The position numbers were made by a program, and so were the translations under genes. 64,000 nt of DNA, taken from the NCBI GenBank assembly GCA_963799845.1, contig CAWCYI010000004.1, forward strand, positions 1,696,001-1,760,000. The letters run 5' to 3'. Every line of letters begins with the position of its first letter. The stretch's first letter is position 1. The stretch comes from an uncultured Nitrososphaerota archaeon (lineage in GTDB: Archaea; Thermoproteota; Nitrososphaeria; Nitrososphaerales; CADDZS01). This document shows positions 16,390 through 30,594 of the stretch, piece by piece. Under the pieces are notes generated by a model, which had not been told where the DNA came from, did no database searches, and worked only from the letters and a program-made list of their open reading frames with translations.

Positions 16390-17433
16390 TTGAGCGTCCA
16401 GCCAGCCCGAGGCATTGTGGGGTTTTTCAAGAGTCACACGATTTTACTTCTACTGATCCTCAGCCCCGGCATCCCCGAATACCTCTCGGGCTCCAGCGCT
16501 CTAAATTCGATCGTTCTGAACCCGATTTGGTTTGTTCTCGGCATCGTGGCCAACTTGGGTCTCTACGGCCCGGGAGTCTTGCTCATTAGAGAAGCGAACG
16601 TGCGGTGGCACAAGGGATGGGGGACGGTACTCTTGCTCGGCGCAGCCTACGGGATTCTCGAAGAGGGGATCGCTCTTAGCACGTTGTTCAATCCAACAGC
16701 AGGACCTGTAGGCCAACTTGGATTTTACGGCCACTGGCTCGGCGTGAACTGGATCTGGACTTCGGGGATTTTGACCGTGCACATGCTGTTCAGCATCTCC
16801 CTGCCAATTCTCCTTCTCGGGCTCACACTCCCGGAGACCAACGGGAAAAGCCTACTGAAATCCGACAGATCGATCGCGACTGCAATCGGCATTCTTTTCT
16901 TCGACGTGCTCATTCTGTTTTTCTTTATCCTTTTCGCAGAGCACTTCTGGATGGGAGCGCCGGTCTTTGCTTTCAGTTTCCTCGCCATAATCACTCTCAT
17001 CTACCTAGCCCGTAGGGCACCCGCGAGTGCTCTAACTCCGCGAAACGACAAACCAACAAAGAGTCCTTTCTGGTTTGGACTGATAGGCGCTTCATTTTAT
17101 CCCGCGATTCTTTTCTCAGAGTTCGGAGGGATGGGATTGCACCTGCCAGCGGTGATCGACGCTGCTCTGGTTGTAGCCGTTCAGGCTCTTTACCTAGTAC
17201 TTGTTCTGAGGATAGTCGGACAATCAAATAACGAACGAAACCTAATTGCACTCGCAGTAGGTCTGATAATCCCAATCGCTTTGTTCGGAATTATCTCAGA
17301 GATTCATCTGCCGATAATACTGGCCGGAGATCTCGTGGCAGGGATTTTCTTTTGGAAGCTGTGGAAAAAATATCCGCCAACAGATAGGATCGCCTCTCAG
17401 AACAAATCTGACCAGATTCGCATAAACAATTAA
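16390..17433 (+). CDS. Conserved-looking multi-pass membrane protein
   Basis: SPGIPEYLSGS, AYGILEEG motifs; about 9-10 TM. Confidence 0.75.
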   Translation: MSVQPARGIVGFFKSHTILLLLILSPGIPEYLSGSSALNSIVLNPIWFVLGIVANLGLYGPGVLLIREANVRWHKGWGTVLLLGAAYGILEEGIALSTLFNPTAGPVGQLGFYGHWLGVNWIWTSGILTVHMLFSISLPILLLGLTLPETNGKSLLKSDRSIATAIGILFFDVLILFFFILFAEHFWMGAPVFAFSFLAIITLIYLARRAPASALTPRNDKPTKSPFWFGLIGASFYPAILFSEFGGMGLHLPAVIDAALVVAVQALYLVLVLRIVGQSNNERNLIALAVGLIIPIALFGIISEIHLPIILAGDLVAGIFFWKLWKKYPPTDRIASQNKSDQIRINN

Positions 17434-17548
17434 TTTCGTGGATCTCTCTAGTCAGGCTGTCCCTCGAGTTTCTGAAAGTGCATTTTTTGTAATCTCGTGC
17501 GCTTAAGAAAACATCAAAAGAGGATTCAGCTTACATCGCTCGTCAGAT

Positions 17549-18136
17549 TTGAGAAAGGAAAGAAAGTTTCTGATTGCAGCAGTAGGATCGCTTTTTGTTG
17601 GATTGATTTTGCTGGCGATCGCTTTTTCCCAGATAACTCAGAGTGCTTCCATCCTCAACACGACCGTCGATCTGAAAGCAGCTTCTCCCTATGGCTCCTA
17701 CGGGGTCTCAGCAAATTACTTCCTAAAAGGGAACAGCAACGGCACCATGAAAGGGAGCCTTCAGAGTTCTCAGTGCTGCGTAGATTTTTACATTTTCACC
17801 GATTCTTCGTGGAACAACTGGATTCCGAATAATCTCACGATAACTAATTCTTCAAACTCCCCAGTCCTCACAGTGAATTCATCTGCAATTGATTCCAAGA
17901 GCGGAGTCCCAGCATCTTTCTCTTTCATCCTAGATCCGAGCGCAACCTACATTCTGGCGTTCTACAACCTCAATAGATCTCTATGGAACAGCAGTTCCAA
18001 GGCCGTGTATCAAATAAAGTCCTACATTAGCATCGAGTATTCAGCAGCTCCTGACAAGTTTCTGATCTATCCCGCTGTCACCTTGCTGGCGCTTGCGATG
18101 ATATTGATCTTCGTGAGGACGAGATATCCCCGATAA
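17549..18136 (+). CDS. Membrane-anchored protein (N- and C-terminal TM, extracellular beta domain)
   Basis: TM, Ser/Asn-rich domain, TM. Confidence 0.65.
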   Translation: MRKERKFLIAAVGSLFVGLILLAIAFSQITQSASILNTTVDLKAASPYGSYGVSANYFLKGNSNGTMKGSLQSSQCCVDFYIFTDSSWNNWIPNNLTITNSSNSPVLTVNSSAIDSKSGVPASFSFILDPSATYILAFYNLNRSLWNSSSKAVYQIKSYISIEYSAAPDKFLIYPAVTLLALAMILIFVRTRYPR

Positions 18137-18244
18137 CTTTCCTCTTTTTTTTCGAAATCCACAGGGAGCTTGAGATCGCCATATCTAGAACCAAGATATG
18201 ACATGAAATCCTTTTTTCCCTAATTATAGGAAAAGGAGAAATGA

Positions 18245-18628
18245 ATGGAAAGGGAGGCCGCGAGAGTGATAATCAGAGTCAAGATGAATATTTGTAACAC
18301 CCAGGAGCCAACAAGATGCACAGGTGATATAGAAGCAATTGTAGATAGCGGCTCCTTCAATACATGTATTCCGAAGGAACGAGCTCAAGCGATTGGATTG
18401 CTAGAGCTTGGGTACAAGAGATTTAGGACGATCAGTGGAGAAATTGTGGAGCGCCCATACGGAGCCGGGGTCTGCACCGTCGACGGCGCAAGAGGAGTAA
18501 GTGAAGTCGTATTCGGCGAAGCTTCCGATGCGACAGTTCTTGGGGCGCTGACGATTGAGGAACTTGGAATCAAGATCGACCCCAGGAACGGTAGGATAAC
18601 TAGGGAAGATGTGTTCCTCGCAGTCTAG
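18245..18628 (+). CDS. Clan AA (retropepsin-like) aspartic protease
   Basis: IVDSGS catalytic motif and VLGALTIEELG. Confidence 0.85.
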   Translation: MEREAARVIIRVKMNICNTQEPTRCTGDIEAIVDSGSFNTCIPKERAQAIGLLELGYKRFRTISGEIVERPYGAGVCTVDGARGVSEVVFGEASDATVLGALTIEELGIKIDPRNGRITREDVFLAV

Positions 18629-18749
18629 CAACAAAGTACCGCGGCAATAATTTTTTACCCACTTTGGATCAGTCCAAGCTTGCCTTTTTGCAATGCTACG
18701 AATACTTACATTCCTACTCGACGAAATCAGGCAGTTTTAGAATTTCCCG

Positions 18750-18898
18750 TAGGTCCATCTCCCTCTTCGTGTACCTGTGTACCCTCTTTGATTATCGAAG
18801 ACATTCTCTCACTTTCATTGATTTATTATGCAAATATTGACTACGTGCGCAACGGTGCAATTCTGCGTACCGAAGAGCTTGAAACGAGCTCTGTTGGC
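18750..18898 (-). repeat. Dispersed non-coding repeat, copy 1 (core AGAGCT-TGAAACG-AGCTCT at 18874-18892)
   Basis: Inverted homology to 27527-27670: 21/22 and 12/12 arms, plus AATCAATGA and ACAGGTACRCGAA blocks at matching spacing. Confidence 0.8.
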
Positions 18899-19028
18899 AA
18901 ATTCTAATGCCATGGTAGAGAATGGAGCTGCTTTTTCATCAACTGGCTAGAGTTGCTCTAACTCCGTATACTTCAGGTAGTCTTGTACCCGCAGACCTGA
19001 AAATCACCCAGATGGCAAATAGCGCCGA

Positions 19029-19277
19029 TCAAATATGAGGAATCGGGTGATAGCTGTCCAGCTCAACTTCTTCAAAGACAAACTGATCGTTGAATGACTC
19101 CCAATCTTCTCTTGAGATTTTTGCCCTGATTTTTTCAATAGCTGTTTCGCGCGAAGAGAACACTCCAAAGATCATATCCACGACGGTCTCACTGTCAGTC
19201 GCAGCTTGCCACTGCGATGGCCAGTAGGCGATCCAGAGATTCACTGATTCCATCCCATATTCTCGGGATCTTCCCAT
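19029..19277 (-). CDS. Hypothetical small protein
   Basis: IFGVFSSRETAIE...EEVELD pattern. Confidence 0.5.
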   Translation of the reverse strand: MGRSREYGMESVNLWIAYWPSQWQAATDSETVVDMIFGVFSSRETAIEKIRAKISREDWESFNDQFVFEEVELDSYHPIPHI

Positions 19278-19424
19278 ATCAAATCTGTTTCCGTCAATTG
19301 CCAGAGTTTCTATCCAAAATGAGCTAGGTTCGTCGCCCTCTACTTAAATAACGTGAAATCTAAAATTTCTCCGCCCAATTTTTTTGGGCATACATTTCCT
19401 CAAAAAATTAGAAGTGATAGAAAA

Positions 19425-20678
19425 GTGTCAAGCAAAGAATTGAATCCTTACGACAACGCAATGAAACAATTAAGCAGCACCGCCAGAATAATCGGTCTCG
19501 ACGCGGACATCCTCGAGACGCTGTCCCAGCCGAAGAGAATCCTTTCGGTCTCTCTGCCGGTCAGACTGGATAACGGCAGGATCAAGAATTTCCAGGGTTA
19601 TCGAGTGCAGTACAGCGACGCGAGGGGGCCCTTCAAGGGAGGGATAAGGTACCACCCCAACGTTTCCCTCGACGAAGTTAAGGCGCTTGCCACCTGGATG
19701 ACTTGGAAGTGCGCGGTCGTTGATATCCCGTACGGCGGCGCAAAGGGCGGAGTAATTTGCGATCCGAAGAACATGTCGCTTCGGGAAAAGGAGAGGCTAA
19801 CGAGGAGATATACGTCAGCCATTGCAGATTTCATCGGACCCCGCAAAGATATTCCGGCGCCCGACGTCTACACCGATCCGCAGACGATGGGCTGGATTCT
19901 CGACACATACAGCCAGATTCACGGGTTCCCGGTTCCGGAAGTCGTGACGGGAAAACCAATTTCATTAGGCGGTTCTGAAGGGCGAAACAACTCTACCGCC
20001 CGCGGTTGCGTGATTTGTGCTCGCGAAGCGGCAAAAGTAACTAAACTACCGCTGAAAGGGGCGAGCGCCGCGGTTCAGGGATACGGCAACGCAGGCTCGT
20101 GGGCTGCAGTATTCTTGAAAGAACTTGGCGTGAAAGTTGTCGCTGTCAGCGATTCGAAGGGAGGAATCATGTCCAAATCGGGACTTGATCCTGCAAAGGT
20201 GCAATCATACAAGGACAAGACAGGATCAGTTGTGGGTCTGGAGGGAACTTCGGAAATCAGCAACGAAGAACTCCTAGAGTCGGACGTGGACATCCTGATC
20301 CCCGCCGCGCTTGAAAACGCCATAACTGCAAAGAATGCTCCGAACGTCAAGGCGAAGATTATTTGCGAAGCCGCAAACGGGCCGACGACGCCGGATGCCG
20401 ACAAGATCCTCGCCAAAAACAAGGTCTTCTTGGTACCCGATATCCTAGCGAATTCGGGCGGCGTTACGGTCAGCTACCTTGAATGGGTCCAGAACCTGTC
20501 CAGAGAACACTGGACTGAAGAGGCGGTGAACCAGAAGTTAGAGCAAAAGATGGTCTCCGGGTTCAAGGGAGCATACGAAGCTTCGATGAAGTACGGCGTC
20601 GAAATGAGGGACGGTGCGCTCGCTGTCTCCATCGGCCGCGTAGCTGACGCGATAAAGACTCTGGGAATGTGGCCGTGA
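19425..20678 (+). CDS. gdhA: Glutamate dehydrogenase
   Basis: GPFKGGIRYH, KCA...GGAKGG, PAPDV, QGYGNAG, EAANGP, PDILANSGGV. Confidence 0.96.
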   Translation: MSSKELNPYDNAMKQLSSTARIIGLDADILETLSQPKRILSVSLPVRLDNGRIKNFQGYRVQYSDARGPFKGGIRYHPNVSLDEVKALATWMTWKCAVVDIPYGGAKGGVICDPKNMSLREKERLTRRYTSAIADFIGPRKDIPAPDVYTDPQTMGWILDTYSQIHGFPVPEVVTGKPISLGGSEGRNNSTARGCVICAREAAKVTKLPLKGASAAVQGYGNAGSWAAVFLKELGVKVVAVSDSKGGIMSKSGLDPAKVQSYKDKTGSVVGLEGTSEISNEELLESDVDILIPAALENAITAKNAPNVKAKIICEAANGPTTPDADKILAKNKVFLVPDILANSGGVTVSYLEWVQNLSREHWTEEAVNQKLEQKMVSGFKGAYEASMKYGVEMRDGALAVSIGRVADAIKTLGMWP

Positions 20679-20849
20679 TCTGTTGGTTCGAGGGATTCGG
20701 CTCGCAGGCCGATCCCTCTGAATTGCGGCATTAATCTTAGAGCAGGCCAACCAAAGATGTGGAACAATTCTGGACCGGCTCTCTGAATAATTTTAGAAAA
20801 TAATAATCTCGCGAGACCGTTATATAGGACGCTCATCGATGAGCGCGGC

Positions 20850-22463
20850 GTGGCATCGTCACCCGCCCCAGAAGAAAAGAAGCAAGTTTTTGTCAGAAAC
20901 GCGACCGGTCTAACAAAGTCGCTGTCTCCCTTTGATCTCTTCAACCTGAGTTACGGCCAGATAATGCCCGCCGTGGGCATTGTATTCATCGTATCTCTAA
21001 GCCCATTTGCCTTCCCCCAGAGCAATATGTTTCTCGCGTTCCTGATTGCGATTCCGCTCGTCGGGCTGGGTCCCGCACTGCTATACTCGATGCTGGGAGC
21101 CGCGATGCCGAGGACGGGAGGAGATTACGTGTATGTCAGCAGGGTGATTCATCCGGCCCTGGGATTCATGACGAACTGGCTGTTTACTCTAACGGTGATC
21201 AGTTTCATTGGAGACGCAGGATATGTATTTCCCTCAAGCGCTCTAAATATCTTCGTCGCCACGATCGGTCAGATGACGGGAAATCAATCGCTCGTTGCAA
21301 ACTCGGTCTGGTTCACAACGCACACTGGTGAAATCGCAACCGGAACGATACTCATACTGGGGGTTACGATATTGATGGTTTTGGGGCGTGCCGTTTGGAA
21401 CTTTATGAAAATCCTATTCTTCATAGTCATGCTCGGAACAATCGTCAACATCATTTACCTGCTTACCGTTTCCAACGCGACTTTCATCACCACCTTCAAC
21501 AACATGTTCGCGTCTCAAGGAATCTCATATCAAGGTCTCATCAATAGCGCCGTGACCGCCGGGTACAAAACTGGCTGGACATTTTCGGGAACTATCGGCG
21601 GTCTCGTCTACGCGATGGCTGGCCTCATCGGTTTCAACTTCGCTGCCTACAGCGCGGGAGAGGCAAAGTCTTCATCCAAGAGCATGCCACTTGCGATCGT
21701 TGGAAGCCTCATAATAGGAGGCGTGCTGTTTTCCGCCTGGGCTTTTGGGATTTACCACGCGTTCGGCTATGATTTCTTCTCCGCGACAAACTATCTGGCG
21801 AACTGCGGTTGCTCTTCCGTTGTACTGCCGATCCCGGTTTCTGTGAACTCGCTTTTCACAATACTCCAGCAGAATCCGATTCTTGAAATCCTGGGAGCTC
21901 TGGCGTTCGGTCTCGCGTGGATCTGGCTGACTCCCACCGACTTTATTCCGGTCGTGCGAAACATGTTCGCCTGGTCGTTTGATCGCGTCGGCCCGGAGCA
22001 GCTCGCGGATGTCAACCCGAGGTTCGGCTCGCCTGTAAAGGCAATCCTGCTCACGGCAGGTCTGGGAGAGTTGCTTCTCATCCTCTTTGTCTACACCAAT
22101 TTTGGCGTCGCATTCGCAAACACTACAATCCTCCTGAATCTGGTCTTCTTCATCACGAGCTTTGCGGGGATACTTTTTCCGTACAGGGCAAAGGCGGTGT
22201 TCGAACAGTCGCCCCGTTGGGTGAAGGCAAAGATCGGCAACATACCGATTATTACTTTGGTCGGAATTTTCTCCGCCATAGTGCAGTCAATACTCCTCTA
22301 CGGCTCTTTCACGAACGCGTTCATCGGAGGTGCGCCCGCATCGTACCCAATCGCGGGTGGGCTTGCGGTTGCAGGACTGGTCATCTTCTACGTTGCAAAG
22401 GCGTACCGGAAAAGCAAGGGAATAAACTTGGATCTTGTGTTCAAGGAAATCCCGCCGGAATAA
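20850..22463 (+). CDS. APC-family amino acid permease
   Basis: FVRNATGL, MPRTGGDYVYVSR, FAWSFDR, FKEIPPE; 12 or more TM. Confidence 0.92.
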   Translation: MASSPAPEEKKQVFVRNATGLTKSLSPFDLFNLSYGQIMPAVGIVFIVSLSPFAFPQSNMFLAFLIAIPLVGLGPALLYSMLGAAMPRTGGDYVYVSRVIHPALGFMTNWLFTLTVISFIGDAGYVFPSSALNIFVATIGQMTGNQSLVANSVWFTTHTGEIATGTILILGVTILMVLGRAVWNFMKILFFIVMLGTIVNIIYLLTVSNATFITTFNNMFASQGISYQGLINSAVTAGYKTGWTFSGTIGGLVYAMAGLIGFNFAAYSAGEAKSSSKSMPLAIVGSLIIGGVLFSAWAFGIYHAFGYDFFSATNYLANCGCSSVVLPIPVSVNSLFTILQQNPILEILGALAFGLAWIWLTPTDFIPVVRNMFAWSFDRVGPEQLADVNPRFGSPVKAILLTAGLGELLLILFVYTNFGVAFANTTILLNLVFFITSFAGILFPYRAKAVFEQSPRWVKAKIGNIPIITLVGIFSAIVQSILLYGSFTNAFIGGAPASYPIAGGLAVAGLVIFYVAKAYRKSKGINLDLVFKEIPPE

Positions 22464-22509
22464 GCTCGACAGCAATTTCTTTTCAGCTCGTAGGTGGCGA
22501 AGCAGTTTC

Positions 22510-23490
22510 ATGACCAGTGTACTTTATGGAAAAGTGGATGGGCAGGGGGAGACCTTTGGAGATTTCGCAGTTATGACCATGGACGTTCCGTGGAATCTCG
22601 TGAAGGATCGCATCGGCGGCAGGCCCGCGAGGGTCGTCATGACTGAGGGCCTCGAGGTCAACTATCTCGACAGCCTGGTGAAGGATCTTCCGAAGATTGA
22701 CACGGTCGTCGGGATCGGCGGCGGCCAGGCCGTTGACACTGCGAAATATTTCGCGTGGAAGCGCGGTTGCAAAGCCGTGTTCATCCCGACGATTGTATCC
22801 GTGAACGCCTACGCGACACCGGCTGCCGCGGTGAGGTTCGACGGCAAGGTGAACTATCTTGGAAACGTTGTGCCCGAGAAGATCATAATCGACTATCCCG
22901 CGATCCAGTCCGCTCCAAAACGTCTCAACACCGCAGGAACCGGCGATATCTACTCATGCCGGACTGCTCTATTTGACTGGTGGCTGGCGCACGAGAAAAT
23001 CGGCGAATTTTATGACGAAAAAATTGCTGACGAGTCGCGACAGATCTTGAGCACGCTCGTTGGCAACGGAAGCGAAATCAAGAACGTTACCGATAGGGGG
23101 ATAAAGACCCTCGTCCAGCTGCACATCGACACGAACACCGTTCAGCTCGAGGCAAAGACACCACGACCGGAGGAAGGGAGCGAGCACCTGTTTTTTTACA
23201 CGCTTGAAGAGCTGACCAGACGCGCCTTCGTCCACGGCGAGGTTGTGGGAACCGGAATTTACATTCTGACGCACTTCCAGAATAATGAGGAAGCGATCGT
23301 TGAGCGAGAGATGGACGCGATGGGTCTATTATTCCGCCCAAAGGATTACGGAATCACACGCGAGGAATTCATCGACACGGTTCTCCAGATGAAGAGATAC
23401 TCCCGGGAGGCAAAATCCATGTTTACCATCGTGGATGTGGTCGACATCACCCGAGACGACGCCGAGATGCTTTGGAAGAAGCTGGCCTGA
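22510..23490 (+). CDS. Glycerol-1-phosphate dehydrogenase-like / DHQS-fold dehydrogenase
   Basis: GIGGGQAVDTAKY, IPT, GDI, SEH, HGE metal ligands. Confidence 0.85.
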   Translation: MTSVLYGKVDGQGETFGDFAVMTMDVPWNLVKDRIGGRPARVVMTEGLEVNYLDSLVKDLPKIDTVVGIGGGQAVDTAKYFAWKRGCKAVFIPTIVSVNAYATPAAAVRFDGKVNYLGNVVPEKIIIDYPAIQSAPKRLNTAGTGDIYSCRTALFDWWLAHEKIGEFYDEKIADESRQILSTLVGNGSEIKNVTDRGIKTLVQLHIDTNTVQLEAKTPRPEEGSEHLFFYTLEELTRRAFVHGEVVGTGIYILTHFQNNEEAIVEREMDAMGLLFRPKDYGITREEFIDTVLQMKRYSREAKSMFTIVDVVDITRDDAEMLWKKLA

Positions 23491-24069
23491 TAACTCATCT
23501 CTGAGCGGGAGTATCTGCTACCCAGAAATAATCTGGAAAACGCCGAAAAATTCTTCCTGATCTCTGGGAGATAATGCCCTACTTCGAAAGAAAGTCCGAC
23601 ACGGGTTCGGAGTTCTATTTCGAGCTGAAGAATGGCAAAGCATGTTTTCTCTGTGACGCAGGAATTTTCTTCTTTTCCCCGCTATCTAACACGATGCGAC
23701 GGCTGATAACCAGATCGGATTTTTCTCCTTCCTACTTCCACTAATTCTCGGATGGCTGACAAACCTAATAATTACGAGAAGGCGAAACAAAGTATTCGTC
23801 GGCCGTGAGCTTGACGGACTACTTTCAGACCCCAAGCTCAATTACACCAAGAGAGAATGGGCAGAGGTCAACAAGGTCTACCTCAGACATTATCGGATCG
23901 TGATAAAGTGGCATTCATCGACGTTCATTACTGACAGAGGGCTGACGCTCCCTTTTTGTTGCTACGTCTTACGTCGAGCTAAAGTCTTTCTTGCTGCGCG
24001 TAGTCGGAGACCGACTGATCGAGAAACGCTGAGGTCATCAATGAACTATTCGCTGATCGCGAAATAAGA

Positions 24070-24756
24070 TCACTGTGATACCAGAGAACCAGCTAAGAAA
24101 AATCCCGAGGCAAAGTAAACAACGTACTGGAACGTCTGCCCGTGGGGGAGCTGAATCGGATTTGACGATTCGGGATAAAATGTGAAGAAGCTGATCTGAG
24201 CGCCCGGCACCGCGTTGTCACCCGGATGGCTGGATGAAAAGACTACAAGGTTTGCGGCGCTAGAAGCAGATGTGGTGTTGTCCCAAGCATTAATCGTCGG
24301 ACCATATGGAGAGACAAGAATAATCGAAGTTATGAAGGTGCTTGAATTTGGATTGTTGAACGCCAGCAAAAGGCTCGCAGTTCCCTGGGAGGAGCTCGTG
24401 GCGCTTGCTCCGCCATAGAGCGATGCCTCAGCAACCGTGATGTTGGAGACGACCTGGGTTGTCTGCGCCAAAGTCACGGTAGTACTCGGTGTTACGGTAG
24501 AAGTCGAAACTTCGCTGGATAATTGGGTAGCTGTGCTGACGACAGTTACCGTACCGTTCATGAAGACAGTGCTGAACTGTGTCTGGATTAACGTCTTCGA
24601 AACAATCGAAGTGACCGAAGTCGTGAGAGTGCTGACGCTAGTATCGGTGATTGCATGGTCGGTCGTAGTGAAATTTACAATCCCGATGCCTATGACAACG
24701 ACCAGGAGAGCAATGATCGCCGCTGTCGCGACCAGCCCGTGTTTTGAGTCGGCCAA
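24070..24756 (-). CDS. Ser/Thr-rich surface protein, possibly pilin-like
   Basis: KHG/LVATAAIIALLVVV class-III-like signal, T/S-rich stalk, C-terminal beta domain. Confidence 0.6.
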   Translation of the reverse strand: MADSKHGLVATAAIIALLVVVIGIGIVNFTTTDHAITDTSVSTLTTSVTSIVSKTLIQTQFSTVFMNGTVTVVSTATQLSSEVSTSTVTPSTTVTLAQTTQVVSNITVAEASLYGGASATSSSQGTASLLLAFNNPNSSTFITSIILVSPYGPTINAWDNTTSASSAANLVVFSSSHPGDNAVPGAQISFFTFYPESSNPIQLPHGQTFQYVVYFASGFFLAGSLVSQ

Positions 24757-25035
24757 AAGCCCATCCGGACTTGAAACACCCTCCCGATCTTAATTAGGTT
24801 CGGAATATCGACTATTGATTTCGAATCTCTAGCAGTTCTCTGCCCCCGGTTAGGAACGAAGCCAAGTGTTATTTCTCAGTTGTGCAATGACAATTAGTCT
24901 AAGATCGCGATGGATTAGAATGCCGACTTGATACAAACAATTGGAATGGTGTTCTGATTGTGAAAAAAATGTAGAACGGGAGGTTCAAAAGTGCAATATT
25001 ATAATCGATACTCTCGCCCCCGTTCTTTAAGACTC

Positions 25036-25257
25036 ATGTCTCAACAGAAAACCAAGACGGACACTTACAGGCCACACGTAAAGCAGACGATAAAGGTTAT
25101 CGGCCGGACAATATTCTGCGCCCGGTGTGACGAAGAAGTGGCGACTTACTACTGCCCGTGCGGAGTCTTTCTTTGCACGATTGATTTTGTCTCGCACAAT
25201 TGCACGAATACGCTGAAGGAAACTTACTACAAGGACCTGATCCAGGCACTAAGGTAA
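25036..25257 (+). CDS. B-box-like zinc-finger microprotein
   Basis: QTIKVIGRTIFCARC...YYCPCGVFLCTIDFVSHNC. Confidence 0.75.
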   Translation: MSQQKTKTDTYRPHVKQTIKVIGRTIFCARCDEEVATYYCPCGVFLCTIDFVSHNCTNTLKETYYKDLIQALR

Positions 25258-25311
25258 TCATGGCAGTAACTTCGGCAATTCCTCGACTACGAAGTAGATT
25301 TTGTTTCAGGA

Positions 25312-26196
25312 TCAAGTTACAGCTATGGGCGTTACCGGCGATCCTGTTCCGCCCCGAATTCGAAGCGGCAGGCAAACGAACAAAAACTTCAGAGCTCGAT
25401 CCTGGGAAACTTCTTCGAGAAAAAGATTCTCGATCATCCTGATGCCATTTTTCGTGATCAGGTACTGGTGGACATCGTCCGCCCCTCTGATTTCCTTTGA
25501 AGGATCGACCTCGACATTCCAGGTGTCGGAGCCGACGACAACAGCGCCTTGATCTGCGAGCCACTCGGCGGCCGATAGATCAATGCCCGGAACCGGGCCT
25601 AGAAATTTAGCGTTGTCAGACATCCAGTACTTGCCCCAGCCGGTGCGGATCAATACGACATCTCCCTCTCTAACTTTCACCCGAGTTGCCTCCGCGCAAT
25701 TTCTGATCTCTTTCGCAGAAATCGCGTAACCTCCATCCAGCGCCGGCACCTTGAAAAAAGACGCGACGTCGATCAAGATCCCTCTCGTAAAGATTGGTGG
25801 CGTCTTCTCGATCCCCAGCTTCGTCGTGCCGAACGTCCCCATTATTTCTTCGGAGACGTGGCCGTTGTACAATCTCTCCCCGATCGAAATGTGATTTAAC
25901 CCGTCGATGTGAGTGCCGGTGTGGTCTGCCATTTCAAGCCTGGTGTTCATCCCGCCCGCGTCGTTTGTCTTTCCCGGAGATTTTAGATCCAGGCTGTGGC
26001 GGCGAAATGTGGTGTAGAGAAACTGACCGTGGAAGGAGAGGCTTGGTATCCCCTCTTCGAGGACGTGAGCCAAGTTGTAGGTCTTTCCCTTTTTGACGAG
26101 ACGAGCGGCTTCCACTATCATCAATGGATTGACTGCGCCCAGCGCGCCGATCTCATCTTCCGCTCCCCACTTTGACGGATACCATTTGTCTGCCAT
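25312..26196 (-). CDS. Cyclase family / kynurenine formamidase-like metal hydrolase
   Basis: WGAEDEIG, HTGTHIDGLNH, RTGW, GGTGSP. Confidence 0.9.
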   Translation of the reverse strand: MADKWYPSKWGAEDEIGALGAVNPLMIVEAARLVKKGKTYNLAHVLEEGIPSLSFHGQFLYTTFRRHSLDLKSPGKTNDAGGMNTRLEMADHTGTHIDGLNHISIGERLYNGHVSEEIMGTFGTTKLGIEKTPPIFTRGILIDVASFFKVPALDGGYAISAKEIRNCAEATRVKVREGDVVLIRTGWGKYWMSDNAKFLGPVPGIDLSAAEWLADQGAVVVGSDTWNVEVDPSKEIRGADDVHQYLITKNGIRMIENLFLEEVSQDRALKFLFVCLPLRIRGGTGSPVTPIAVT

Positions 26197-26296
26197 AACT
26201 TCTCGTGCTCGCGAGACATCCCGTTAAAGCACTTTTGATTTTCGCAGATGGTCCAGGGTTCATGATTAAATATACTCTCTATTCCAGATGATTTTC

Positions 26297-27394
26297 ATGT
26301 CACTTGAATCCGACTCTCTTGGTTTGCTGAAGGAGCTTTCGGAATCCTTCGGGCCTTCGGGCTTTGAACGAGAACCGGCGGCGATTGTAAAACGCGTGGG
26401 CTCGCAATTTGCGGATGAAATATTGCACGACAAGATCGGCTCGATAATTCTCAAAAAAAGAGGGACGAGTGAATCGCCGAAAATTCTCATGGCGGGGCAC
26501 ATGGACGAGGTCGGATTCGTGATAACTGGAGTTGATCCCCTGACCGGATATCTCGCGTTCGCTGCGCTGGGCGGCTGGTTTGACCAGGTTCTCCTGGGGC
26601 ACAGGGTGACGATCAGGACGCGCAAGGGCGACGTGATCGGAGTCATCGCTGCAAAGCCGTGGCATCTTCTGACGGTCGAGGAGAGGGAAAAGGTCGTGAA
26701 AATGGATAACATGTTCATCGATGTTGGAGCTGATGACTCGGTCGTCGCAATGGACGAGCTCGGAGTGCGCATCGGCGATCCGGTTGCCCCGTGGACTCAA
26801 TTTACGATGGTGCGCGGCAATCGAATAGCGATCGGCAAGGCGTTCGACGACCGCGTTGGAACATTCGTTGGGCTGGAAGTCCTGCGCCGGATGAGTTTTA
26901 GAAAAGTCGAACATCCAAACACGATTTACGTCGGCGGGACGGTCCAGGAAGAAGTGGGATTGCGCGGCGCGAATACCGTCGCACACGTGGTTGACGCGGA
27001 TGTCGCGTTCGCACTCGAAGTGGATATCGCCGGAGACGTTCCGGGAATAAAGCCAAGCGAAGCTCCGTCAAAGTTGGGCAAGGGGCCCAGCATACTCACC
27101 TTCGATGCGTCGATGATACCGAACCAGGAGCTCAAGCGTTTTGTAATTGATACAGCAGAGTCCGAGGGCATACCGTACCAGCTTTCGACGGTGGCGAAGG
27201 GCGGGACCGACGCGGGGAAGTTCAACCTGAATAAAGCTGGATGTCCTTCAATCGTGATCAGCGTGCCCACGAGGCACATCCATTCCCACGAAGCAATCGT
27301 GGACACGAGGGACATTGATACCACAGTGAGACTGATGCTCGCTCTGATTCAGAAACTTGACCACAAAACGGTGAAAAGCTTTACTCAGAACTGA
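26297..27394 (+). CDS. M42 family (TET-like) aminopeptidase
   Basis: GHMDEVG, KAFDDR, QEEVGLRG, GGTDAG, RHIHS. Confidence 0.94.
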   Translation: MSLESDSLGLLKELSESFGPSGFEREPAAIVKRVGSQFADEILHDKIGSIILKKRGTSESPKILMAGHMDEVGFVITGVDPLTGYLAFAALGGWFDQVLLGHRVTIRTRKGDVIGVIAAKPWHLLTVEEREKVVKMDNMFIDVGADDSVVAMDELGVRIGDPVAPWTQFTMVRGNRIAIGKAFDDRVGTFVGLEVLRRMSFRKVEHPNTIYVGGTVQEEVGLRGANTVAHVVDADVAFALEVDIAGDVPGIKPSEAPSKLGKGPSILTFDASMIPNQELKRFVIDTAESEGIPYQLSTVAKGGTDAGKFNLNKAGCPSIVISVPTRHIHSHEAIVDTRDIDTTVRLMLALIQKLDHKTVKSFTQN

Positions 27395-27526
27395 GCGTTC
27401 ATTGCTCGGATGTGCGTTTACGTGGATTTTTAGGTACGTACACAAGACCTGCATGATTCAAAGATTTTGGAAATACCTGAAAACCGCCATTCTCTAACCA
27501 AAAATTTCAGAATCCAGCTGTCAGTG

Positions 27527-27670
27527 GCCAACAGAGCTTGAAACGAGCTCTTTGGTACGCAGAATTGTGCCCCCGTGTAGAAAAAGGAGAAAATTGTATA
27601 TTAAATCAATGAGATTAAACAATCGCTTTGTAAAGCCAAATAGGTCTACAGGTACGCGAAAAAGACCTAG
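27527..27670 (+). repeat. Dispersed non-coding repeat, copy 2
   Basis: GCCAACAGAGCT-TGAAACG-AGCTCTTTGGTACGCAGAATTG...AAATTGTATATTAAATCAATGAG...ACAGGTACGCGAA. Confidence 0.8.
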
Positions 27671-27712
27671 CAGGAATCGGATCTACGGCTTCGAGCCCCA
27701 GCCGATTTTTTC
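27622..27712 (+). ncRNA. Candidate structured small RNA
   Basis: Follows a BRE/TATA-like sequence; hairpins GCTTT/AAAGC, TAGGTCT/AGACCTA, and AATCGG/CCGATT enclosing GGCT-TCG-AGCC; ends in a T-run. Confidence 0.3.
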
Positions 27713-27842
27713 AATGAGGAATTACTCCGACGGTATGATTAACGCTCCAAATTTGTTTTAGCTCTTCAAGCTTAATCTTCGAGCGTGAAACGCAACCCCT
27801 TCATTTCGAAAATGAATTCCGACGGCTCGCAGACATGATCAC

Positions 27843-27987
27843 AGCTCGTGGACACAGCTCCCTAAGCTCCGTTCAGCTCGTTTTCAAGCTCTTCTGAGCT
27901 AACAGAGCTTGAACGTCAGCTCTTCAGCAAAAAAGTGCTCAAGTGTGTAGAAACGCAGAAAAAAATTCTATATAAGAATCAATGAGA
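27843..27987 (+). repeat. Phased AGCT array plus dispersed repeat copy 3
   Basis: AGCT at 27843, 27856, 27865, 27875, 27887, 27897, 27906, 27918; AACAGAGCTTGAA...GTGTAGAAA...AAATTCTATATAAGAATCAATGAGA matches copy 2. Confidence 0.75.
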
Positions 27988-28287
27988 ACTCGTATATGAA
28001 CGAGAAGGTACTCCTTAGGTTTTCAAGACACAATGATGGTCATCGTTAACTATTGTGTAATATTATTGCAACAAACGATTAGGCATTCTATATTGTTGTG
28101 AGTCGGAAAGTGAATTCGGATCGAAAAATAGAAAATAATTCTCAATAAAACCTATAGAGTACTTTTAGGGCACATTGTTATAGAATATAGAATTTTGGTT
28201 TTTGAAAATAGTGCTACCAATGAGAATTGATTCCGATATAGATTATTGTCAAAAGAAAAATATACCTTCCTCTTCCCATACGCGAAC

Positions 28288-30594
28288 ATGAAAACAAGGA
28301 CGAAGGTATCCATCGCAACGCCGTTACTACTTTTAGCAGTCTTACTCACAGCAAATTTCGCGACAATTTTCGCGCAATCAAATTCGAACTCTAACACTAC
28401 TACGCCGATAAAACACGTGGTAGTAATCTTCCAGGAGAACGTCTCGTTTGACCATTACTTCGGGACTTACCCCAACGCAGCAAACCTGCCCAACGAACCG
28501 CAGTTCACGGCCGCTCCGGGAACGCCCACTGTCAATGGACTCACTGGCGCGCTGTTGACAAGCAATCCCAACGAGCTGGTGACCGGGAATCCCACCGACA
28601 ACCCGGCGAGGCTTGATCGCACCGAGCCAGTTACGTGCGACAACGATCACGATTACACCGCAGAACAAGCTGCCTTCAACGGCGGATTGATGAACATGTT
28701 TCCCGAGCAGACCAGCTGCAGCGACGGTCTCGTCATGGACTACTACGACGGGAACACCGTGACCGCCCTCTGGAACTACGCACAGAACTATGCTCTCGAC
28801 GACAACTTCTTCGGTACTACCTTCGGACCATCAACACCTGGAGCACTGAACCTGATATCGGGCATTGGCGGCCCTATGATCGCGACACTTCCTGGCGGAA
28901 CGACTACTAATAACGTGGCCGGAGTTCTCGCCAATGGACAGGTAATCGGAGACTCCGACCCAACATTCGACGATTGCTCAAGCACAACGAGCCCAACACT
29001 AGCGATGACTCCTTCCAGTGGAGCAGGCGCGCCCCAGAACATTGGAAACCTTCTCAATAATGCTGGCCTGACGTGGGGTTGGTTCCAGGGCGGGTTCACG
29101 CCCACAGTTCCATACAATCCGGTGACGGGCTCCCCGGCAGTTTGCGGCTCATCCAATGTCCAGGTAGGCGGAACGACCGAGGCCGCTTACAGTGCTCACC
29201 ACGAGCCGTTCCAGTACTTCGCCTCAACCTCGAACCCCCACCACTTGCCACCGAGCTCGCCTTCCATGATTGGCTACACCGATCAGGCAAACCACCAGTA
29301 CGACCTTTCCTCTTTCTGGATCGCGGCTGACTCGGGCAACCTGCCGGCGGTCAGTTTCTTGAAGGCAGACAGGTTCCAGGACGGACACCCGGCCAATTCC
29401 GATCCGCTCGATGAACAGGCTTGGCTCGTCAACACCATAAACAAGCTCGAAAGCCTCCCCACGTGGAGCAGCACGGCCATCTTCATCACATGGGACGACT
29501 CCGACGGCTGGTACGATCACGTCATGGGCCCGATTGTAAGCCCATCCAGCGACCCCACAAATGATGTCCTCAACGGAGTCACTTGTGGTACCGGGACCTC
29601 GCCATTGGGTGTTCAGGACAGGTGCGGCTACGGACCGAGGATCCCGCTTCTCGTGATCTCTCCATACGCCAAGCAGAACTTTGTCGACAACACTCTCACC
29701 GACCAGTCGTCAATTCTCAGGTTCGTCGAGGACAATTGGAATCTCGGGAGCGTGGGCCCTAGTTCCTTCGACAACCTCGCAGGCAGCCTGCTCAAAATGT
29801 TCAATTTCAACTCGCCCCAGAGAGGGCCTGGATTCTTTCTCAACCCATCCACCGGAGAGCAGGTCTCTGTTGGTGGATCTCACGGCGGCAAGGTCGGACT
29901 GGACACAACTTCGATGTGCACCGACCAGAACACCAATCCGGACGTTTGCGCCCTCCAATCGAACTTTAACGGAGAGGCCATCGCAAGTGGGGATTACGTC
30001 TGGTTCAGCAGCGTCCTGAACCTGGACTCGCAGGTTCCCACCGTGGGACTCACGATCCACTTTAGCGGTCAGTGGATTTTCGCCCAGCTTCAAGACGGCA
30101 CTACACTGAGCCTACCGGCTCCAAACGCCGAAGTGATTTACAGCCCGACTGCAACCACATCGACGACCAGCTTCACCAGTGGCCAGTGGGTAACGACTGT
30201 GCCCTCGAGCTACACGGGGAATGTATTTCTCTCTGGTCTCGCCTACCAGGTCCCAGCCGGTGTTTCACTGCAGAGAGCCCAGGTAACGTGGACTGGCACC
30301 ATCAGTGGCACGACAAACTCGTTCCACATCGGATGGGAGTGGGCGACAGCAGCATACAGCGGCTTCGGTGCTCTCACCATAACTAACACGAACGCGCTCT
30401 ACAACGGTCTCGGCATCAAACCAATCGACGCAAACACCGGCAATCCGTACCTCAACAACGATAACGCTGGAACTCCAGAGAACTTTGAGTCGAACGTCAT
30501 CCCAGGAGCGACCGGCAACGGAGGAACGGATTACACAGGCTTCTACAGTAACTCCGGCACGGCGCTGTACCAGGCATACCTGCTGAATCAGTAG
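28288..30594 (+). CDS. Secreted phospholipase C / phosphoesterase (AcpA-like) with extra C-terminal domain
   Basis: TPIKHVVVIFQENVSFDHYFG, FGPSTPG, HHEPFQY, WDDSDGWYDH, GYGPRIP. Confidence 0.9.
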   Translation: MKTRTKVSIATPLLLLAVLLTANFATIFAQSNSNSNTTTPIKHVVVIFQENVSFDHYFGTYPNAANLPNEPQFTAAPGTPTVNGLTGALLTSNPNELVTGNPTDNPARLDRTEPVTCDNDHDYTAEQAAFNGGLMNMFPEQTSCSDGLVMDYYDGNTVTALWNYAQNYALDDNFFGTTFGPSTPGALNLISGIGGPMIATLPGGTTTNNVAGVLANGQVIGDSDPTFDDCSSTTSPTLAMTPSSGAGAPQNIGNLLNNAGLTWGWFQGGFTPTVPYNPVTGSPAVCGSSNVQVGGTTEAAYSAHHEPFQYFASTSNPHHLPPSSPSMIGYTDQANHQYDLSSFWIAADSGNLPAVSFLKADRFQDGHPANSDPLDEQAWLVNTINKLESLPTWSSTAIFITWDDSDGWYDHVMGPIVSPSSDPTNDVLNGVTCGTGTSPLGVQDRCGYGPRIPLLVISPYAKQNFVDNTLTDQSSILRFVEDNWNLGSVGPSSFDNLAGSLLKMFNFNSPQRGPGFFLNPSTGEQVSVGGSHGGKVGLDTTSMCTDQNTNPDVCALQSNFNGEAIASGDYVWFSSVLNLDSQVPTVGLTIHFSGQWIFAQLQDGTTLSLPAPNAEVIYSPTATTSTTSFTSGQWVTTVPSSYTGNVFLSGLAYQVPAGVSLQRAQVTWTGTISGTTNSFHIGWEWATAAYSGFGALTITNTNALYNGLGIKPIDANTGNPYLNNDNAGTPENFESNVIPGATGNGGTDYTGFYSNSGTALYQAYLLNQ

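Follow-up and report, generated by a model that had tools for sequence, protein, structure and literature searches.

Two hairpin sites flanking an 8.6-kb gene block in an uncultured soil archaeon lie within inverted copies of a dispersed palindromic repeat with recurrent loop inversions

The repetitive extragenic palindromic (REP) sequences of bacteria and the bacterial interspersed mosaic elements (BIMEs) which they form are short palindromic units scattered between genes, often clustered in mosaics, found in both orientations and abundant after the 3' ends of genes. The core sites of tyrosine recombinases, such as lox, FRT, dif and att, consist of inverted arms flanking an asymmetric centre of 6-8 bp. 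In archaea, the palindrome-associated transposable elements (PATEs) of haloarchaea are related, according to passages of two reports, to IS200/IS605-type transposons (PMC3119063; PMC10055086), and a passage of the first defines them by the lack of terminal inverted repeats, by near-terminal palindromes and by a length too short for a transposase (PMC3119063). The present analysis concerns a 64,000-nt stretch (the window; C4:1696001-1760000) of the genome of an uncultured Nitrososphaerales archaeon, and within it two hairpin-bearing sites, A and B, which bracket an 8.6-kb block of genes. An earlier description made without database searches, the sequence-only reading, had likened the pair to the attL/attR ends of an excisable cassette. 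The reading preferred here, with a probability of roughly 0.85, is that a dispersed, lineage-specific repeat, Fam1, which probably spread as selfish DNA, is present at the two sites in opposite orientation, its central hairpins forming A and B, and that the loop of copy A has been flipped.

The letters attributed to site A (18858-18898) and site B (27527-27567) by the sequence-only reading are present at both, and its arm counts are right on direct reading: the inner arms agree at 12 of 12 positions and the outer arms at 21 of 22, around an identical 7-nt centre. A repeat finder returns the sites as a 41-nt inverted repeat of 85% complementarity in which the 7-nt centre and one arm base are the non-complementary positions, while a 19-nt core, AGAGCTTGAAACGAGCTCT, is an exact direct repeat (18874-18892 and 27533-27551). 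Combining the two results, reverse-complementing site B yields site A, save for the central 7 nt, which stay uncomplemented, and a single arm base. The patchy homology noted further outward is also real, since 18815-18833 pairs with 27594-27612 (19 nt, 89%) and ACAGGTACRCGAA blocks are visible at both sites. The motif AGAGCT-N7-AGCTCT, with at most one mismatch, occurs twice in the window against an expectation of 0.18, and 1 of 100 shuffles reached two. The 41-nt match together with some 100 nt of outward similarity far exceeds the level of chance seen with this motif, and is accounted for by the descent of both sites from one repeat family.

That family was defined by BLAST with 300 nt around each site, followed by an nhmmer profile search of the assembly of this genome (G000; 4.6 Mb in nine contigs) with a cut-off of 50 bits; loci L001-L003 were excluded from the alignments so as to avoid possible double counting. 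Fam1 has 22 copies in the genome, 21 of them scoring 105-153 bits and one scoring 55, and the family alignments show them to be intergenic, non-coding and about 250 nt in length. The genome scan for AGAGCT-N-AGCTCT which had been proposed as a check on the cassette likewise indicates a dispersed repeat, with 54 exact hairpins of spacer length 5-10 nt in the whole assembly. The 5' end of the element, recognisable in 12 of the 22 copies, lies at TTTCAGGT and opens a hairpin, after which comes a variable stretch of about 70 nt existing in two subtypes. The central hairpin, AGAGCT-N7-AGCTCT, is followed by nearly invariant sequence of about 60 nt. An A/T-rich TATA-like box leads into AATCAATGA, which is found in 21 of the 22 copies and whose 21 genomic matches (two mismatches at most) all lie inside Fam1. 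The 3' hairpin resembles the 5' hairpin in sequence. A small open reading frame beginning at an ATG after the TATA-like box was considered and rejected: the ATG is absent from B and from other copies, and the frames differ between copies. The repeat features in and beside the two sites are as follows.

18742..19002, minus strand: Fam1 copy A, whole (about 260 nt); nhmmer 118.9 bits, ends from the family alignment and end motifs
18874..18892, no strand: central hairpin of copy A, with a 6-bp stem and a 7-nt loop (18880-18886) reverse-complemented relative to the family majority; from the alignment
18815..18831, minus strand: A/T-rich TATA-like box and AATCAATGA of copy A, near-invariant, promoter activity putative; from family matches
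27428..27677, plus strand: Fam1 copy B, whole (about 250 nt); nhmmer 141.8 bits, ends from the alignment
27533..27551, no strand: central hairpin of copy B, its loop (27539-27545) oriented as in most copies; from the alignment
27596..27612, plus strand: TATA-like box and AATCAATGA of copy B, with two mismatches to the family form; from family matches
27856..28010, plus strand: Fam2 copy, comprising one AGCT-loop-AGCT unit at 27875-27890, another hairpin at 27904-27923 and the TATA-like box with AATCAATGA at 27966-27985

Both site hairpins are internal to their elements of about 250 nt. The two copies lie in opposite orientation, their 5' halves pointing inward and their 3' halves outward from the supposed cassette, and they belong to different 5' subtypes, which is why their similarity ends at the inner side of the hairpin yet extends outward. 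A sister family, Fam2, gives 58 profile matches above 40 bits in G000, including a copy which lies 330 bp past site B. It has the layout of Fam1 plus one extra AGCT-loop-AGCT unit, and the two families share the order hairpin, TTCGG, GTGTAGAAA, A-run, TATA-like box with AATCAATGA. The short unit itself, AGCT-TGAAACG-AGCT, occurs 82 times in the assembly when one mismatch is allowed. The depth of metagenome contigs at the Fam2 copy 27856-28010 is 32-58, against about 6 in the adjacent bins, as fits a multi-copy repeat. The short unit bears a loose resemblance to the ends of CRISPR repeats, but the link was dropped: an exact-18-mer scan of the assembly finds no array, and the Cas1 genes lie in casposon-like elements without these hairpins.

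Read in the orientation of the element, the Fam1 loop is as in B in 19 of the 22 copies, single-base variants being allowed, and is the exact reverse complement in three (A, C4:1495866 and C4:419951). The direct spacer between swapped arms arises because A and B are inverted copies and the loop of A is flipped; any inverted pair of a flipped and an unflipped copy would display it. Loop flips recur. Among 38 Fam1 copies drawn from four genomes, five are flipped, and a maximum-likelihood tree from an alignment in which the loop was masked requires five changes, of which well-supported branches force at least four, although such a tree is only indicative given the short alignment and likely gene conversion. 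Evidence independent of the tree comes from G003, a member of the same genus whose genes are about 82-85% identical to those of G000. The G003 copy L062 and the G000 copy at C4:1495866, identified as orthologues by 1.2 kb of flanking sequence that is 85% identical, have opposite loop states, whereas copy A and its G003 orthologue are both flipped. Thus one flip is older and one younger than the split of the two genomes. The first unit of Fam2 also occurs in two loop states, 13 against 6 in the 19 full-length copies; its second hairpin has a single state in all copies but one.

Inversion of a loop with the stem left unchanged is described, in passages of one report, as an outcome of template switching during replication (PMC8794818), and the 7-nt loop of copy A may have been inverted in this manner, by intrastrand template switching across the stem. 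Fam1 resembles the micro-inversions ascribed to this process in that the loop is an exact reverse complement, the stem is unchanged, the length is kept and the event recurs on separate branches. It differs in its setting, the described cases being in rRNA or plastid spacers and the present ones in a dispersed DNA repeat of an archaeon, to which the mechanism would have to be extended.

The segment of the window from 17000 to 29000 was searched against 30 relatives, among which G004, with genes about 75% identical, shares the genus of G000 and G003. On a single G003 contig, the homologue of 17341-18139 is separated by only 19 bp from that of 18744-20227, which comprises copy A and the beginning of gdhA; synteny therefore crosses site A, the left gene, the copy and gdhA being together on one contig. 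The G003 orthologue of A is 82% identical over an alignment that spans about 18744 to 19005, with unalignable sequence to its left, and window positions 18140-18744 are absent from this otherwise syntenic contig. That segment of 605 bp abuts the outer end of copy A and contains a reading frame of 127 amino acids (18245-18628) with an Asp_protease_2 match of 23.7 bits, just below the cut-off. No Fam1 copy was found in the 1.1 kb of unrelated sequence which follows the M42 peptidase homologue of G003, so that G003 is without B. On two contigs of G004, the M42 homologue is followed at a distance of 139 nt by a diverged Fam1-like copy in the loop state of B; no Fam1 copy stands beside the G004 homologue of 19029-19241, and G004 is without A. 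On the G004 contig C178 (L015) this homologue is followed directly by the Fe-ADH-like gene, 19353-22463 (gdhA and the permease) being missing. The window and G004 thus differ, within the supposed cassette, by the insertion or deletion of two genes. In neither G003 nor G004 does the bracketed segment come or go as one piece with breaks in synteny at the two sites; A and B have histories of their own, and the interior is no unit.

Twelve Fam1 copies were placed in G003: six are orthologous to G000 copies, three lie between flanks which are contiguous in G000 and without a copy, one faces a Fam2 copy, one is at a site of rearrangement, next to a G000 copy that is truncated, and one has no matching flanks. 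From this comparison of presence and absence it follows that the split of the two genomes was followed by gains or losses of Fam1 copies. A Fam1 copy at C6:1642532-1642650 in G000 is cut off just past its central hairpin and is intact in G003 (L042); in G000 the two flanks of L042 keep their relative orientation but are separated by 63 kb, and no second half of the element is present at the other breakpoint. The range of the repeats is narrow. The short unit occurs in four of 201 genomes of the order, all of one family (27 in G000, 13 in G003, 4 in G004 and 1 in G012), with reversed-pattern controls giving 0; G001 is among the genomes in which the repeat has no match. The 161-nt core matches five of the 13 genomes of that family, and an exact 23-mer is found in only one other species genome, that of a Nitrososphaerales archaeon. 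Two core strings have no match among viral contigs. Such repeats were not found described for this group in the full-text literature, a weak negative, part of the results having been swamped by papers on arthropod mites.

Most likely, Fam1 and Fam2 spread, or once spread, as non-autonomous, palindrome-bearing selfish DNA resembling PATEs, REP sequences and BIMEs, and they would now be largely static, exchanging sequence among copies. Like PATEs, so far as the passages on these elements go, Fam1 is short, non-coding and present in tens of copies, with no evident terminal inverted repeats or target duplication, and is heterogeneous, with modular subtypes. It also has the PATE form as there defined, having near-terminal palindromes, one hairpin near each end, which are alike, and no coding capacity. 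By comparison with the same passages, it departs from PATEs in being best conserved centrally and in having no IS605-type kin in G000, and its mobility, unlike theirs, is read only from presence and absence between two diverged genomes. The link by which PATEs are defined, end palindromes akin to those of an IS605-type transposon, is not seen in G000, and for want of that parent Fam1 is not filed as a PATE, although it may well work like an element of PATE or REP type. The units resemble REP sequences and BIMEs in being intergenic, often clustered in mosaics, found either way round and more frequent than expected behind the 3' ends of genes; they differ in their archaeal host and in lying inside elements of 150-260 nt with a TATA-like box. 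The association of REP sequences with a RAYT (REPIN-RAYT) is not found, both PF01797 (Y1) matches being inside ordinary IS605-type elements unflanked by units. Nor does Fam1 have the marks of a miniature inverted-repeat transposable element, namely terminal inverted repeats matching a resident transposon together with a target-site duplication.

Several observations weigh against the account of selfish spread with loop inversion by template switching. An autonomous partner of Fam1 or Fam2 was not found in G000. The two IS605-type elements with both tnpA and tnpB are unrelated, having left and right ends without the Fam1 or Fam2 hairpins, and the 3-kb surroundings of 14 tnpB loci in G000 contain no such hairpins. 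The terminal inverted repeats of an IS630-type element are unrelated to Fam1. Clear terminal inverted repeats or target duplications were not seen at the ends of Fam1 copies, and no clean pair of filled and empty sites defining these ends was found between G000 and G003, their intergenic DNA being too diverged. The stem of the first Fam2 unit is AGCT only, and 4 bp is short for a template switch. Finally, the centre of Fam1, from hairpin to TATA-like box, is more conserved than the ends, which is unusual for a transposon, and orthologous copies are about 82% identical, a gene-like value, beside unalignable spacer.

These last two points also count in favour of an alternative in which Fam1 and Fam2 are host-function elements, kept by selection as promoter modules for short or antisense transcripts or as arrays of binding sites for a dimeric DNA-binding protein with the palindrome as its target. 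The near-invariant TATA-like box, present in 21 of the 22 Fam1 copies and also in Fam2, points the same way. The box resembles the hexamers TAAATA, TTAAAT and CTTAAA, which peak around -30 upstream of host genes, and Fam2 similarity stops about 30 nt past it, about where a transcript would start. Upstream hexamer enrichment served as the reference for the TATA element because the tRNA genes found by ARAGORN (n=9) were too few; at default settings only these nine were reported in the 4.6-Mb assembly, a low count which likely comes from intron-containing archaeal tRNAs or from assembly gaps. The identity of 82% between orthologues beside unalignable spacer fits either selection or gene conversion.

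The placement of the copies makes such a host function improbable. With genes approximated by non-overlapping ATG-initiated reading frames of at least 100 amino acids, the downstream gene is co-oriented with Fam1 in 12 of 22 copies, and Fam2 copies in tandem regions divide into 18 co-oriented and 17 anti-oriented. Regions between convergent genes contain more Fam2 copies (17 of 57) than their share of the background regions (377 of 2259) would give, and regions between divergent genes contain fewer (5 of 57; background share 594 of 2259). The lack of orientation bias and the convergent enrichment form the pattern of tolerated selfish insertions, rather than of promoters or terminators serving their neighbours. 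The sequence past the box, moreover, is the least conserved. Structured RNA finds little support as well: the consensus structure of the 22 Fam1 copies contains only the 6-bp hairpin, with no covarying pairs, and folds of the whole elements, with z-scores of -1.2 and -1.0, are unexceptional. Some apparent compensatory variants (such as GCCC/GGGC, CCCC/GGGG and CACC/GGTG) are seen in another small hairpin, which lies upstream of the TATA-like box, but several copies break its pairing. An Rfam scan of 17500-29000 gave a single match, to a snoRNA, which falls on the Fam2 hairpin at a level expected by chance (E = 0.99).

Exchange between copies is suggested by the segment of about 25 nt between GAATTG and the TATA-like box of Fam1 (columns 33-60 of alignment A2; 18832-18857 and 27568-27595 in the window). 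It exists in several discrete variants which agree among copies within a genome and differ between G000 and G003 orthologues, for example L052 and C7:215091. Agreement within a genome points to gene conversion among dispersed copies, and this pattern of concerted change is one of the things that the repeats have to offer. The lineage-specific palindromic system of this uncultured soil archaeon, a modest addition in itself, also provides clear cases of recurrent loop inversion, one of them dated after the split of two congeners. A bolder formulation, possible though doubtful as a whole, is that Fam1 and Fam2 make up an undescribed modular palindromic class of archaeal repeats in one soil Nitrososphaerales genus. 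In it, the outward-facing TATA box would seed short or antisense transcripts, the elements would have spread by a single-strand DNA route, gene conversion would homogenise the copies, and AGCT-bounded loops would be hot spots of micro-inversion.

The cassette proposed by the sequence-only reading, in which A and B are tyrosine-recombinase sites, the recombinase acts in trans and the 8.6-kb block can be excised as a circle, is very improbable. What speaks for it is form: like lox, FRT, dif and att cores, both sites have inverted arms around an asymmetric centre, here of 7 nt, in direct orientation. Unlike such cores, they are of high copy number, with 22 Fam1 and 58 Fam2 copies genome-wide, and sit in the middle of a larger repeat, so that a crossover in the hairpin would halve both elements of about 250 nt; they have no cognate recombinase and lie in conserved synteny. 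The absence of a recombinase from view was correctly noted, the window (C4:1696001-1760000) containing no PF00589 match. The whole G000 assembly has only three such tyrosine-recombinase-like matches (C4:2115564, C7:200823 and C2:35074), one of them over the cut-off, and the nearest is about 350 kb from the window. No contig joining about 18.88 kb to about 27.54 kb was seen in four metagenome DNA runs, which are assembled short-read contigs from one study that break inside repeats. The comparison with relatives which was to test the cassette turns out against it, as G003 keeps synteny across A, the two sites come and go separately in G003 and G004, and G004 differs in the gene content of the interior. 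Conserved synteny across sites, and many copies at positions which do not track gene-content breakpoints, are among the outcomes that the sequence-only reading had itself named as contrary to its proposal. Its headline is not supported, in view of copy number, internal hairpins, synteny, the separate histories of A and B and the recombinase survey, but its fallback, a dispersed repeat whose hairpin loop has micro-inverted, is what the copy counts and loop states show, and as a whole it is partly supported. An inverted pair of hairpin repeats with one loop flipped mimics the attL/attR geometry exactly, and before a cassette is called the copies in the whole genome should therefore be counted and synteny examined.

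A dedicated invertase which flips the 7-nt segments between AGCT or AGAGCT arms as a phase-variable switch would account for the recurrence of flips, but is hardly credible: the flipped state of A is fixed and common to G003, and so of old date and not a state in flux; the differences listed for the four runs, whose contigs drop rare variants, include no mixture of loop states at either site; no recombinase gene is nearby; and known invertase sites are far longer than the arms of 4-10 bp seen here.

The genes between the two Fam1 copies are those named by the sequence-only reading, as Pfam matches bear out.

19353-20678: ELFV dehydrogenase (gdhA-type); Pfam
20850-22463: amino-acid permease; Pfam
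22435-23490: Fe-ADH-like dehydrogenase; Pfam
within 19353..27394: reading frame of 228 amino acids with no Pfam family
25312-26196, minus strand: cyclase; Pfam
26288-27394: M42 peptidase; Pfam

They lie on both strands, do not form one operon and are ordinary chromosomal genes.

Other mobile elements are present in the same genome. The IS630-type insertion sequence (1.13 kb; helix-turn-helix and DDE_3 domains by Pfam, in two overlapping frames) has about 18 copies (18 BLAST rows) of 99-100% identity, flanked by TA, and appears to have been active recently. One copy is at C4:212496-213629; others lie beside Fam1 at C6:1051198-1052327 and C4:1494410-1495543, and in one case the insertion sequence stands in place of the 5' portion of a Fam1 element. 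Outside the window, C4:233599-238771 (L075 5600-10772) is an element of about 5.2 kb with perfect terminal inverted repeats of 127 nt, flanked on both sides by CCCACCATTTTTA of about 13 nt in the manner of a target duplication. It encodes a Cas1 homologue of 328 amino acids and a few reading frames without a family, no polymerase being seen, and looks like a recently inserted, minimal casposon-like element. At C4:~199100-203850 (L074 4134-8845), a Cas1 homologue of 388 amino acids lies 1.4 kb downstream of a family B DNA polymerase of the protein-primed type (711 amino acids; PF03175), a gene pair typical of casposons, and a third, partial Cas1 match is situated at the end of contig C6.

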